This document shows positions 9,904 through 14,820 of a stretch of DNA of 64,000 nucleotides, one piece after another. The notes under the pieces were generated by a model. That model was given only the letters and a program-made list of their open reading frames with translations. It was not told the DNA's origin and ran no database searches. Positions within the stretch are counted from its first letter, which is position 1. Each line of letters starts with the position of its first letter. Where the stretch lies: assembly GCA_035533475.1 (NCBI GenBank), contig DATLTS010000041.1:1070-65069 (forward strand), written 5' to 3'. The DNA is from Mycobacteriales bacterium (lineage in GTDB: Bacteria; Actinomycetota; Actinomycetes; DATLTS01). Position numbers and translations under genes: made by a program.

Positions 9904-10395
9904 GTGGCGGACCCGTCGTTCGACGTAGTGAGCAAGGTCGACCGCCAGGAGGTCGACAACGCCCTCAACCAGGCTGCCAAGGAGATCGGGCAGCGCTACG
10001 ACTTCAAGGGGACCGGGGCGGCGATCACGTGGTCCGGCGAGACCGTCGAGATCCGGGCCAATGCCGACGACCGGGTCCGCGCGGTTCTCGACGTGTTCCA
10101 GGAGAAACTGATCCGACGCGGGGTGTCCCTCAAGGCCCTGGACCACGAAGACCCGGAACCGGCCGCTGGCGGAACGTCCCGGCTCGTGATCCGGATCCAG
10201 CAGGGCATCGCCGACGAGCAGGCCAAAGCGATCGCGAAGCGGATCCGCACCGACGGCCCCAAGGGGGTCCAGGCGCAGATCCAGGGGGATCAGCTGCGGG
10301 TGAGCGGGAAGAAACGAGATGACCTGCAAGCCGTCATCGCGATGCTTCGCGAAGCCGACTTCGGGGTGCCGTTGCAGTTCGTCAACTACCGCTAG
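9904..10395 (+). CDS. yajQ: YajQ-family nucleotide-binding protein (UPF0234)
   Basis: 163 aa; N-terminus [27 protein letters not shown] matches the conserved YajQ start (PSFDIVS...). GTG start with GGGAGG upstream. Confidence 0.8.
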
Positions 10396-10817
10396 CTCCC
10401 GGACTCGGCGGCTTCGCTCGGGAGCGCGCCACCCGGAGCGGCTGGGACGGTGCCCATCCAGTCCCGGAGCTGGGGCAACTCGTGGGTCAGGTCGCCGAGC
10501 AGAGCCGCCGGGTAGGCGTACTCGGGCGACCAGAACAACGCGTCGAACGGGCAGGCCTCGATGCAGATACCGCAATACATGCACAGGCTGAAGTCGATGG
10601 CGAAACGGTCGAGCACATTCCGGACCTGCCGGCGCCGGCCGGCTGGCTGCGGGGTGGCTTCCTGGTGCCCCTCGATGAGGATGCACCAGTCCGGGCACTC
10701 CCGGACACAGATCATGCAGACCGTACAACTTCCCTCGTCGAGGGCGATGACGCCTCGGCCGGCCGGCTGCGGCCGCTCTTCGGCGGCCGCCTCCAGCCGA
10801 ACCTCGAACTCGCTCAT
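10392..10817 (-). CDS. NuoI-like 2x[4Fe-4S] ferredoxin subunit (paralog outside the main nuo operon)
   Basis: 141 aa with two CxxCxxCxxxCP motifs ([24 protein letters not shown]). ATG overlaps the stop of the upstream NuoC-like gene (ATGA). Confidence 0.75.
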
Positions 10818-11356
10818 GCCGGGCCCGGCGTTGGCGGGTCGCCCGCCCCCGGCGGGACAAGACGTCGGCGGCCGGATGTCACCGCCGGATCGGGATCGAG
10901 GGCTCCGGGCCAGTCCCGGCGGCGAGCCGCAAGGACGAAATCCTTGCGCAGCGGGTTCCCCTCAAAGCCGTCCGGTAGCAGCAGCGGGGCGAGGTTGGCA
11001 TGACCTGGGAAATCGATGCCGAACATCTCGTGGGTCTCCCGCTCGTGCCAGTCGGCGCCGGCCCAGACCGACGTCAAGGAGTCCAGCTGCGGGCGCGCCG
11101 AGGGGATCCGGGTGCGGAGCAGGACCGCGCACCGCCCGCTGATCGACCACAGGTGAGCGGCGACGATGAAGTCGCCCGCATCCTCGTAGGCGCTGAGCCA
11201 GTCGAAGAAGCCGAAACCGAGGTCGTCCCGATCATGCAGCGCGGTCGCGGCGCTCACCCAGCGATCCGCGGCTACCTCCAACGTGACCAGCCCGAACCCG
11301 CGGTGGATCCGGGCGGAGCCGTCCACCGTGGCCAGCCGCTCGTGGACCTCAGCCAC
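10814..11356 (-). CDS. NuoC-like (30 kDa subunit family) protein, paralog
   Basis: Carries the NuoC signature [44 protein letters not shown], close to the genuine NuoC in this window ([26 protein letters not shown]...). Start set at the GTG at 11356 overlapping the NuoB-like stop; the ORF track extends to 11428. Confidence 0.7.
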
Positions 11357-11831: not shown

Positions 11832-11914
11832 GGGCGCCCGAGGGCGTCGAGCGGACGTACGATGAGGACAGGCGCGGGTGCGGAAGCCGCTGCGCGCCAG
11901 GGAGGTTTTCCACC

Positions 11915-13774
11915 GTGAGCAAGCAGGTCCGTCAGCTCGACCGCGTCATCATCCGGTTCGCGGGGGACTCCGGGGACGGCATGCAACTCACCGGGGACCG
12001 GTTCACCTCGGAGACGGCTTCCCTCGGAAACGACCTGTCCACCCTGCCCGACTTCCCGGCCGAGATCCGTGCCCCGGCCGGCACGCTCCCCGGAGTGTCG
12101 GCTTTCCAACTGCACTTCGCAGATCACGACATCATGACGCCAGGTGACCGGCCCGACGTCCTCGTCGCGATGAATCCCGCCGCGCTCAAGGCCAACCTGC
12201 GCGACCTGCCGGCCGGGGCGGACATCATCGTCAACACCGACGAGTTCACCGCCCGGAACCTGGCCAAGGTCGGATATGGGGCCAACCCGCTCGAAGACGG
12301 CTCGCTGGACGCCTACCGCGTGCACGCCATCGCGTTGACGTCCATGACCGTGACGGCACTCGAGCAGTTCGATCTGGGTAAGAAGGAAGCCGAGCGGGCG
12401 AAGAACATGTTCGCCCTGGGGCTGCTGTCCTGGCTTTACAACCGCCCGACCGAGGCGACCGAGAGGTTCCTTGTCATCAAGTTCGCCAAGGCCCCGGAGA
12501 TCGCACAAGCGAACGTGGCGGCGTTCCGGGCCGGCTACGCCTTCGGTGAGACTACCGAGTCCTTCTCGGTGCGATACGAGGTCAAACCGGCGCCGCTCCC
12601 GCCCGGGCACTATCGCAACATCTCGGGCAACGTCGCGCTCGCCTACGGGCTGATTGCCGCATCACGGCTGTCCGGCCTCCCCCTCTTTCTCGGTTCCTAC
12701 CCGATCACGCCGGCGAGCGACATCCTGCACGAGCTGTCCAAGCACAAGCAATTCGGCGTGCGCACCTTTCAAGCGGAGGACGAGATCGCCGGAATCGGCG
12801 CCGCCCTCGGCGCCGCGTTCGGCGGATCGCTCGGCGTCACCACCACGTCGGGTCCTGGCGTAGCGCTCAAGTCGGAGACGATCGGGCTCGCGGTCTCGCT
12901 AGAACTTCCGTTGCTCATCTGCGACATCCAGCGCGGCGGGCCCTCCACCGGACTACCGACGAAGACCGAGCAGTCCGACCTTCTGCAGGCCATGTTCGGC
13001 CGAAATGGCGAGGCCCCCGTGCCGATCGTCGCTCCCCAGTCGCCGGCCGATTGCTTCGCCGCGGTCATCGAAGCGGCGCGGATCGCGACCAAGTACCGAA
13101 CCCCCGTGTTCCTGCTGTCCGACGGGTACCTAGCCAACGGCTCCGAACCGTGGCAGATCCCGGACGTTGGCGAGCTGCCGGACCTCCGAGTGGAGTTCGC
13201 CACCGAGCCGAACGCGGTCGACGATGCAGGGGCTCCGGTTTTCTGGCCGTTCAAACGGGACCCCGAGACGCTGGCCCGCCCATGGGCCGTACCGGGGACC
13301 CCAGGTCTCGAACACCGAATCGGCGGCCTGGAGAAAGCAGACGGCTCGGGCAACATCTCCTACGACCCGGCGAACCACGACACGATGGTCCGGCTCCGTG
13401 CCGCGAAGGTCGACGGGATCGCCCGGGACATCCCGGAACTCGAGGTCGACGACCCGGACGGCGACGCCACGGTCCTCGTTCTCGGTTGGGGGTCTACGTA
13501 CGGCCCAATCGGCGCGGCCTGCCGGCGAGTCAGGTTGGCCGGAGCCGCGGTGGCCCAGGCGCACCTGCGCCATCTCAATCCGTTCCCCGCCAATACCGGG
13601 GACGTACTACAGCGGTACCGCAAGGTGCTGATACCGGAGATGAACCTAGGCCAGCTCGCGCTTTTGCTGCGGGCCCGCTACCTCGTCGATGCGATCTCCT
13701 ACAACCAAGTCCGAGGCTTGCCGTTCAAGGCGGACGAGCTCGCGGGCGTGATTCAGGACGTGATCGAACAATGA
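11915..13774 (+). CDS. korA: 2-oxoglutarate:ferredoxin oxidoreductase subunit alpha
   Basis: About 619 aa from the GTG at 11915 (GGGAGG upstream); typical KorA length and motifs (GDSGDGMQLTGDRF, pyruvate-flavodoxin oxidoreductase-like core). Confidence 0.8.
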   Translation: MSKQVRQLDRVIIRFAGDSGDGMQLTGDRFTSETASLGNDLSTLPDFPAEIRAPAGTLPGVSAFQLHFADHDIMTPGDRPDVLVAMNPAALKANLRDLPAGADIIVNTDEFTARNLAKVGYGANPLEDGSLDAYRVHAIALTSMTVTALEQFDLGKKEAERAKNMFALGLLSWLYNRPTEATERFLVIKFAKAPEIAQANVAAFRAGYAFGETTESFSVRYEVKPAPLPPGHYRNISGNVALAYGLIAASRLSGLPLFLGSYPITPASDILHELSKHKQFGVRTFQAEDEIAGIGAALGAAFGGSLGVTTTSGPGVALKSETIGLAVSLELPLLICDIQRGGPSTGLPTKTEQSDLLQAMFGRNGEAPVPIVAPQSPADCFAAVIEAARIATKYRTPVFLLSDGYLANGSEPWQIPDVGELPDLRVEFATEPNAVDDAGAPVFWPFKRDPETLARPWAVPGTPGLEHRIGGLEKADGSGNISYDPANHDTMVRLRAAKVDGIARDIPELEVDDPDGDATVLVLGWGSTYGPIGAACRRVRLAGAAVAQAHLRHLNPFPANTGDVLQRYRKVLIPEMNLGQLALLLRARYLVDAISYNQVRGLPFKADELAGVIQDVIEQ

Positions 13775-14820
13775 CCGAGAGCACGGGCCGCCGGACGGCC
13801 CTCGACCTGGTCCCGCGAAGCGACGAACGGTACGTGGCCAAGGACCTCAAGACCGACCAGGATGTCCGGTGGTGCCCCGGCTGCGGTGACTATGCCATCC
13901 TCGCCGCGGTTCAGGGCTTCCTCCCGGAACTGCAGCTTGCCCGGGAGAATCTGGTCTTCGTTTCCGGGATCGGATGCTCCTCCAGGTTCCCGTACTACAT
14001 GAACACCTACGGGTTGCACTCGATCCACGGTCGGGCTCCCGCGATCGCAACCGGCCTGGCCACCGCGCGGCCGGACCTGTCCGTATGGGTGGTAACCGGC
14101 GACGGCGACGCGCTTTCGATCGGCGGTAACCACCTGATCCACGCCCTGCGCCGCAACGTCAATATCACCATCCTGTTGTTCAACAACCGGATCTACGGCC
14201 TCACCAAGGGCCAGTATTCGCCGACTAGCGAACTGGGCAAAGTGACCAAGTCGACGCCGCTCGGTTCACTGGATCACCCGTTCAACCCGGTGTCGCTAGC
14301 GCTGGGCGCGGAGGCCGGCTTCGTGGCCCGCACCCTGGACTCGGACCGCAAGCATCTGACCGCGGTTCTGCGCGCGGCGGCTCAACACCGTGGCACGTCT
14401 TTCGTGGAGATCCTGCAGAACTGCAACATCTTCAACGATGGTGCCTTCGATGCGGTCAAGGATCCCGCCACGCGGGATGAAGCGACGATCCGACTGGAGC
14501 ACGGCCAGCCGATCAGGTTCGGGACGGACGCGGCGCGCGGCGTAAAGCTCACCGGCCGAGGGGGGCTCGAGATCTGCGCCGGCGACGATCCGGAACTCCT
14601 GGTGCACGACGCGCACGCGCCCGAACCCGCAATCGCCTTCATGCTTTCCCGGTTGGGCAACATCGATGATCGGCCGACGCCGATCGGCGTCTTTCGCGAC
14701 GTCGACCGCCCGGTCTATGACGACCTAGTCCGGGAACAGATCGCCCAGGCGACTGCGGTGAACGGCGACGGCGAGTTGGCCACGCTGCTGGCCAGCGGCG
14801 ACACCTGGGCGATCAACTGA
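13771..14820 (+). CDS. korB: 2-oxoglutarate:ferredoxin oxidoreductase subunit beta (TPP-binding)
   Basis: 349 aa from the ATG at 13771, overlapping the korA stop (ATGA); CPGCGDYAIL and GDGDALSIGGNHLIHA thiamine-diphosphate motifs. Confidence 0.8.
   Translation: MTESTGRRTALDLVPRSDERYVAKDLKTDQDVRWCPGCGDYAILAAVQGFLPELQLARENLVFVSGIGCSSRFPYYMNTYGLHSIHGRAPAIATGLATARPDLSVWVVTGDGDALSIGGNHLIHALRRNVNITILLFNNRIYGLTKGQYSPTSELGKVTKSTPLGSLDHPFNPVSLALGAEAGFVARTLDSDRKHLTAVLRAAAQHRGTSFVEILQNCNIFNDGAFDAVKDPATRDEATIRLEHGQPIRFGTDAARGVKLTGRGGLEICAGDDPELLVHDAHAPEPAIAFMLSRLGNIDDRPTPIGVFRDVDRPVYDDLVREQIAQATAVNGDGELATLLASGDTWAIN

Follow-up and report, generated by a model that had tools for sequence, protein, structure and literature searches.

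A NuoB/C/I-like gene trio beside korAB as a reduced form of the actinobacterial nuo2 cluster

What is a set of three complex I-like peripheral subunits doing in a genome when the genes for the rest of such an enzyme are missing from its cluster? The question is raised by a locus in a 64,000-nt contig stretch (the window) of an uncultured high-GC actinobacterium, listed at NCBI as "Mycobacteriales bacterium". Three adjoining minus-strand genes of the window encode proteins resembling NuoB, NuoC and NuoI (tB, tC and tI; here, the trio), and they diverge from korAB, the genes of a two-subunit 2-oxoacid:acceptor oxidoreductase. Gene content, phylogeny and motifs together show the trio to be the peripheral-arm remnant (B2-C2-I2) of nuo2, the second nuo cluster known from Streptomyces, after loss of seven membrane genes (A2, H2, J2-N2). 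The evidence of selection and of lost motifs suggests that the remnant is functional, and that it is no longer docked on a NuoH/NuoA membrane arm or feeding a quinone channel.

Composition of the trio locus

The locus comprises the following features (window positions):

11349-11831, minus strand: NuoB2-like gene (tB), 160 aa; PF01058 Oxidored_q6, 70.7 bits
10814-11356, minus strand: NuoC2-like gene (tC), 180 aa; PF00329 Complex1_30kDa, 119.2 bits
10392-10817, minus strand: NuoI2-like gene (tI), 141 aa; two CxxCxxCxxxCP motifs with a long, NuoI-type spacer
11832-11914, between divergent genes: tB-korA intergenic region, 83 bp
11915-13774, plus strand: korA, 619 aa, alpha subunit of a two-subunit 2-oxoacid:acceptor oxidoreductase; TIGR03710, 652.6 bits (cutoff 482.75)
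13771-14820, plus strand: korB, 349 aa, TPP/[4Fe-4S] beta subunit; PF02775; TIGR02177, 258 bits (cutoff 261.9)
9904-10395, plus strand: yajQ (DUF520), convergent with and 3' of the trio; NF003819, 211.9 bits

A sequence-only reading of this DNA had described three minus-strand NuoB/C/I-like genes with intact cluster cysteines, and this is confirmed by Pfam and NCBIfam models, by alignment to Nqo6 and by public gene calls on identical DNA, with which all three gene models agree. The tB protein keeps the four N2-type [4Fe-4S] ligands (CC, C, C-P-P), aligns to Thermus thermophilus Nqo6 residues 28-154, and reaches 128.6 bits with the NCBIfam NuoB subfamily model. The top NCBIfam model for tI is NuoI TIGR01971, at 53.5 bits and under its cutoff of 113, and the NCBI annotation pipeline labels the protein only as "4Fe-4S binding protein". 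An assignment of tI as a PorD/KorD delta subunit was considered and rejected: TIGR02179 scores 37.1 bits (cutoff 60.05), the spacer is of the long NuoI type, and NuoI models score higher.

The overlapping stop and start codons that had been reported were found at both junctions, with one correction. The ATG of tI overlaps the stop codon of tC as ATGA, as stated, but tB and tC overlap by 8 nt (GTGGCTGA) rather than by GTGA. The start of tC is fixed at the GTG at 11356, because a 180-aa NCBI protein from a metagenome-assembled genome (MAG) is 100% identical. The spacer between tB and korA, which had been given as an 84-bp shared promoter region, measures 83 bp, and a scan of it found no sigma-70-type consensus promoter, terminator or TGTGA-N6-TCACA/CRP/Rex-type site. 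On its other side, korA begins with GTG at 11915 with a Shine-Dalgarno sequence GGGAGG, and the start of korB overlaps the korA stop. The nearest solved structure to KorA is the Magnetococcus 2-oxoglutarate:ferredoxin oxidoreductase (6N2N), and KorAB is of the two-subunit type that has no ferredoxin domain. At the distal end, the stop codons of yajQ and tI overlap (10392-10395) inside a palindrome, GCTAGC, so there is no space for a terminator between them; a similar overlap occurs at another locus, L002.

Descent from nuo2 and loss of membrane-facing elements

Related loci were collected in two scans. The first, in which aligned NuoC-like relatives served as the query, covered a single genome of each bacterial species and gave 80 loci, which were annotated by tblastn with the window proteins; the second, of metagenomes, gave 80 further loci. 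The total came to n=166 (L001-L166), and 163 were classified after three copies of the window's own locus had been left out. A neighbourhood survey had been proposed alongside the sequence-only reading, and the B2-C2-I2-only form appears in it at 27 of the 163 loci, full nuo2 at 111, and the other 25 loci are truncated too far to classify. The B-C-I unit thus recurs in 27 independent loci, and the arrangement is not chance.

Full nuo2 has the order nuoA2-B2-C2-H2-I2-J2-K2-L2-M2-N2, without D, E, F or G, and is found in Streptomyces, Kitasatospora, Streptacidiphilus, Embleya, Yinghuangia, Nonomuraea, Actinomadura, Actinoallomurus, Micromonospora, Kribbella and several MAGs. A reading of the open reading frames (ORFs) of S. 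albogriseolus confirms this order and shows no NuoD in the cluster. Since the order is the canonical one minus D-G, nuo2 derives from a full operon. It often has a divergent korBA before it and a convergent yajQ after it, and the typical trio-only layout (korB-korA <> B-C-I >< yajQ) is the same as that of the window; yajQ, which in many loci is found 3' to the trio or to nuoN2, is a conserved distal boundary. Streptomyces nuo2 corresponds to SCO4599-SCO4608, and the literature calls its role unclear (PMC3765725, PMC8388888, PMC9239103, PMC9739823). The cluster is known from annotation and transcriptomics, and the B2-C2-I2-only form is not described in the literature searched.

Two nuo2 loci show peculiarities of their own. 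In a Micromonospora locus (L037) nuo2 is split, with DUF2252 and glucose-dehydrogenase genes between B2 and C2 (7484-9886) and a SnoaL-domain gene between H2 and I2 (11942-14245), and nuoA2 was not detected. A Streptomyces NuoC2 (L021:9950-11215) carries a disordered C-terminal tail of ~250 residues with RS(V/A)SEGSASQ-type repeats; the tail is far shorter in trio-only proteins.

In a neighbour-joining tree of concatenated B, C and I proteins, nuo2 and the trio are separated from the canonical subunits by a long branch with 100% bootstrap; a phylogeny had been named as a check, and its outcome is that the trio groups with nuo2, apart from canonical NuoB/C/I. The trio also shares family-specific motifs with nuo2, including the NuoC tail WPGAKEPGES..RRRMRPPGVPDP; in tC the C-terminal family motif reads WPGA..P....RRR..PPG. 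On tree and motif evidence, the window proteins are orthologs of nuo2 B2, C2 and I2. Orthology, synteny and motifs lend strong support to the earlier suggestion that the trio is a further reduced but intact derivative of the second, partial nuo cluster that Streptomyces has near korAB. At the 27 trio-only loci no membrane nuo2 gene (A2, H2, J2-N2) was found up to 10 kb away, and the 64-kb window has none beyond its canonical operon. No cultured trio-only carrier occurs among the best 120 matches of either protein search, nor at the 80 loci from genomes.

Together with the membrane genes, two further elements have disappeared. The first is an N-terminal segment of NuoI (GLAKGLAVTLRTMT..VT.QYP), present in 85 of 86 full nuo2 proteins (three variant spellings included) and in 0 of 27 trio-only ones; tI lacks it and aligns to Nqo9 residues 36-145 only. 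The second is a NuoB loop. In tB the conserved R-x-D..R-x-G..P-R-Q-A-D loop that follows the CC motif is swapped for an unrelated A/P-rich stretch, and in trio-only NuoB-like proteins generally the loop is A/G/P-rich and ~20-55 residues long. Its PRQAD motif is kept in 96/96 full nuo2 proteins vs 1/22 trio-only ones, the RHDF motif in 89/96 vs 0/22, and the NuoB W-G-R-x-x-S-L-W helix is likewise lost or randomised in trio-only lineages. From known complex I structures, the NuoI segment and the NuoB loop are expected to lie against the membrane arm and the quinone channel. The quinone site is formed by Nqo4, Nqo6 and Nqo8, and NDUFS7 has a mobile element beside the channel (PMC11677225). The lost NuoB loop would by analogy be the element that lines the quinone channel.

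Both elements are present in canonical as well as full nuo2 proteins. Being common to the outgroup and to full nuo2 they are ancestral, and the trio-only state is therefore derived by loss. In the neighbour-joining bootstrap the window falls in a trio-only clade (73%), L001 and L017 fall with full clusters (59%), and monophyly of all trio-only loci receives 31%; one or two reduction events are possible on this topology.

Traces of the loss itself were sought at the reduced loci. At the trio-type locus L111 (10471-12144) an HHH_3 (ComEA-like) gene, encoded on the other strand, separates the NuoC gene from the NuoI gene. This locus was considered as a decay intermediate and rejected, as the 1.6 kb between the NuoC and NuoI genes is the unrelated HHH_3 gene, with no nuoH remnant. 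Upstream of its NuoI start an in-frame, untranslated "GRLAKGL" may be what is left of the missing N-terminal segment, and is suggestive only. Pseudogene remnants of nuo2 membrane genes at trio-only loci were likewise discarded: the tblastn matches are artefacts of long alternative-frame ORFs in high-GC DNA.

Selection, partners and a possible role

Disabled cluster cysteines in orthologs, which the sequence-only reading had named as evidence that would count against it, are found in none of the complete trio-only sequences aligned: every one keeps all 4 NuoB and 8 NuoI cysteines (this count leaves out the contig-truncated loci L132 and L142, with one NuoI motif each). Stop/start overlaps of 4 nt are present at 20 of 25 B-C and 26 of 27 C-I junctions of trio-only loci. 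For the trio-only pair L001/L017, in which dS is unsaturated (0.37-0.52), dN/dS is 0.15 for B, 0.27 for C and 0.065 for I, and the full-cluster pair L009/L030 gives 0.08, 0.24 and 0.12, respectively; in the window clade the ratio is 0.24-0.49, with dS saturated. The GC3 of the trio (0.82-0.87) matches that of neighbouring genes. Members of the trio-only clade are only ~55-65% identical and their ORFs are intact, which implies that the reduced state is long-lasting.

Cysteines, overlaps, dN/dS and long persistence together make it very improbable that the trio is a non-functional relic of a decaying nuo2, heading for loss. Trio-only loci do evolve faster than full nuo2, on long branches, the loop of the NuoB-like protein is free of constraint over its whole length, and L132 has a split NuoI match, all of which a relic would show; against this stand ORFs that remain intact over a 55-65%-identical clade, the full set of cluster cysteines, the 4-nt overlaps and dN/dS values of 0.065-0.27. 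That an intact trio is kept by selection in many uncultured soil bacteria suggests instead that it has acquired a new soluble job.

Any such job depends on partners, and for these the canonical operon of the window has to be considered.

17026-32520, minus strand: complete canonical nuoA-N operon (Pfam matches for NuoA-J; NuoL/M/N from public gene calls; ORF map)
16011-17009, minus strand: polyprenyl synthase gene, after nuoA-N
14849-15994, plus strand: acyl-CoA dehydrogenase gene, after the polyprenyl synthase gene

The trio had been called an orphan with no NuoD, NuoEFG or membrane subunit. This holds for the immediate cluster; the complete nuoA-N operon, which shares the strand of the trio and whose nuoN end is 5.2 kb upstream of it, had been overlooked. 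Identities between the trio and the canonical subunits of the window are 43% for NuoB, 35% for NuoC and 31% for NuoI. At this divergence the trio is, by sequence comparison, a set of old paralogs of canonical NuoB/C/I, and a recent tandem duplication of the neighbouring canonical genes is ruled out by the same 31-43% identity.

The proximity of this operon nonetheless raises the possibility that B2, C2 and I2 replace NuoB, NuoC and NuoI in canonical complex I, giving a hybrid isoform with another electron input or regulation. At L033 the trio sits right behind nuoN and the polyprenyl synthase gene, at L003 and L093 it is also behind nuoN, and for Streptomyces a machinery that combines nuo and nuo2 has been suggested (PMC9239103). 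A retained NuoC-like subunit moreover speaks for a NuoD partner, and the canonical NuoD is the only one seen. However, the NuoI segment, the NuoB loop and the W-G-R-x-x-S-L-W helix have been lost exactly where the nuo2 membrane genes have been lost, and subunits that dock on NuoH/NuoA should have retained their docking elements; the hybrid isoform is disfavoured for this reason, and we regard it as unlikely.

The question of a NuoD partner goes further than this. In the structures of complex I, NuoD is the main binding partner of NuoC, and its interface with NuoB is the site of the N2 cluster. The NuoC-like family is strongly conserved, with invariant WHERET, PLLLP and PLRK motifs, and because NuoC is without a cofactor and binds mainly NuoD in known structures, this conservation argues that a NuoD-type partner persists, which may be the canonical NuoD or a distant nuoD2. 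The canonical NuoD (~29596-30948, ~18 kb upstream of the trio) is the sole NuoD of the window, in which tblastn with its sequence found no second one. Nor did the same search find a NuoD-like ORF at any of the 166 loci, over a range of 10 kb in which a distant nuoD2 would not show, and a HMMER search with canonical NuoD against 1.84 billion representatives returned only canonical NuoD in the 10 names and one context inspected. In Streptomyces, nuoD2 is stated to be encoded away from the nuo2 operon (PMC3765725, PMC8388888), so absence of NuoD from the cluster is no proof of absence from the genome; no nuoD2 locus tag or sequence was found in the literature searched.

A dispersed arrangement of this kind could extend to the membrane arm. 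The nuo2 membrane genes and nuoD2 would then lie at another locus, and with the trio would make up a full 11-subunit ferredoxin:menaquinone oxidoreductase. The separate nuoD2 of Streptomyces favours such a split, as do the membrane-only partial operons (nuoA-hyp-H-J-K-L-M-N) of marine actinomycetes (PMC6676996) and the Micromonospora nuo2 that is already interrupted by unrelated genes. The losses of the NuoI segment and NuoB loop speak against it, as does the lack of membrane nuo2 genes in the intervals searched around the trio-only loci and in the window, and a split system is judged improbable.

The reading that we tentatively prefer, as one with a real though not a prevailing chance of being right, is that the nuo2 remnant works as a membrane-detached, three-cluster electron relay, probably for ferredoxin and KorAB. 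Of the three [4Fe-4S] clusters that the relay would hold, the NuoI-like protein would carry two and the NuoB-like protein one, of N2 type, with the NuoC-like protein as scaffold. In ferredoxin- or flavodoxin-fed relatives of complex I, NuoI is the entry point for the low-potential carrier. The NuoI-like protein would likewise exchange electrons with such a carrier, most likely ferredoxin reduced by the divergently encoded KorAB, and electrons would pass from it to the NuoB-like cluster and on to a further acceptor. Ferredoxin reduced by KorAB is the natural candidate donor. KorAB is a two-subunit enzyme without a ferredoxin domain of its own, and korA lies divergently, 87-754 bp upstream, in 14 of the 17 trio-only loci with upstream sequence. 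The likely fourth partner would be a NuoD-type protein encoded elsewhere, either the canonical NuoD or a separate nuoD2 as in Streptomyces.

Several points weigh against this relay. The korAB adjacency of the trio is inherited from the ancestral nuo2 locus, and it is missing at L003, L033 and L093, where the trio lies behind canonical nuoN; at L033 nuoN and the polyprenyl synthase gene come immediately before it, and it abuts the latter. Membrane genes could be present elsewhere in the genome. Furthermore, it is doubtful that B, C and I would form a stable complex in the absence of a NuoD-like protein, given that NuoC binds mainly NuoD and that N2 sits at the NuoB-NuoD interface. The soluble, ferredoxin-linked Fe-S relay put forward in the sequence-only reading thus fits the element losses and the pairing with korAB, but that pairing is inherited and incomplete, and the relay is not established. 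A stricter version, a free-standing soluble B-C-I complex with no NuoD or membrane partner that serves as dedicated acceptor or donor of the KorAB 2-oxoglutarate oxidoreductase, seems rather unlikely; if true, the peripheral arm of complex I would have given rise to a new class of soluble redox module.

Two observations concern the korAB side of trio-only loci. In one subclade (L125:60-400, L160, L161, L137, L121, L147) the korA-tB spacer is 500-750 bp long and contains a DNA-conserved block of ~330 nt, which holds an invariant palindrome, CTGTGACGCCGATCACA (TGTGA-N6-TCACA, CRP/Rex-type); the block has no Rfam match and is absent from the 83-bp spacer of the window. At L001 (6252-9208, on a MAG contig from long reads) the tblastn matches to korA and korB are split and korA is called as two ORFs, with the adjoining trio intact, and L075 is alike. 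This pattern may be either korAB decay or assembly indel errors.

The wider surroundings may be described briefly. The region 5' of nuoA contains an FAD-dependent reductase (32622-33896), an amidohydrolase (34670-35947), radical-SAM CofH/MqnC-type genes (35944-37134 and 41982-43151), a VitK2_biosynth (MqnA/D-type) gene (37688-38554) and two adjoining YbjQ_1-domain genes (39454-41409). Apart from the YbjQ_1-domain pair, these minus-strand genes (32622-43151) together point to a futalosine-pathway menaquinone block beside complex I. At 33926-33941 (plus strand) the sequence TGTGAATCCGTTCACG, similar to a Rex/CRP-type operator, has one mismatch to TGTGA-N6-TCACA. It is found 30 bp upstream of the FAD-reductase gene located before nuoA, and as ~0.75 such matches per window are expected by chance, this is weak evidence. 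Beyond yajQ, the segment 1886-8896 encodes a DDE transposase (1886-3262, plus), an RHS-repeat protein (4128-7139, minus) and a CBM96/DUF6531 protein (6908-8896, minus). It resembles a polymorphic-toxin-like island, with GC down to 0.634 at 4-6 kb.

Complex I is thought to be modular in origin, and here that course is reversed: a second complex-I-like enzyme is stripped back to three peripheral iron-sulfur and scaffold subunits, which purifying selection has maintained throughout a diversified clade of uncultured soil actinobacteria. Should the module be active by itself, these subunits would function outside any membrane complex, and it would offer a simple handle on the role of nuo2 in Streptomyces and relatives. 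The joint loss of the NuoI segment, the NuoB loop and the membrane genes can also be taken as a natural experiment that marks membrane-docking and quinone-channel elements.

Comparison with known systems

A first comparison is with group 4 [NiFe]-hydrogenases, including Mbh and formate hydrogen lyase (FHL). tB scores 107 bits to Nqo6 vs 65-70 bits to HycG/MbhJ, its tandem CC motif is one we take to be of the complex I type, and no NiFe large subunit or antiporter-like membrane genes adjoin the trio. The earlier statement that the trio alone can be neither a second complex I nor a group-4 hydrogenase therefore stands, as neither a large subunit nor membrane genes are present.

The closest system is Streptomyces nuo2 (nuoA2, B2, [C2], H2-N2). 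Like the trio, it is positioned downstream of nuo1 and korAB and upstream of yajQ, and neither cluster includes NuoD, E, F or G. The trio differs in that the seven membrane genes, the NuoI segment and the NuoB loop are absent, and its proteins are shorter and faster-evolving. With the canonical Q-module (NuoB/C/D/I; Nqo6/5/4/9) the trio shares its folds and the N2, N6a and N6b-equivalent ligands, and its best PDB matches are complex I subunits. Unlike the Q-module, it has no NuoD in the cluster, the elements that face NuoH and the quinone channel are missing, and identity to the organism's own canonical subunits is 31-43%. During the assembly of complex I, a soluble subcomplex of B, C, D and I does occur as an intermediate.

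Complex I relatives without NuoEF, such as Campylobacter jejuni Nuo/OOR and cyanobacterial NDH-1, receive electrons from a low-potential carrier reduced by a 2-oxoacid oxidoreductase; for C. jejuni, Nuo with OOR is said to have been described by Weerakoon and Olson in 2008. The trio resembles flavodoxin- or ferredoxin-fed relatives of the C. jejuni Nuo/OOR type in its genomic pairing with korAB. Those enzymes, however, have retained NuoD together with a complete membrane arm, and they reduce quinone, which the trio alone cannot do. The membrane-only nuo operon of marine actinomycetes is the complementary half, and it too represents a natural split of the complex I arms (PMC6676996).

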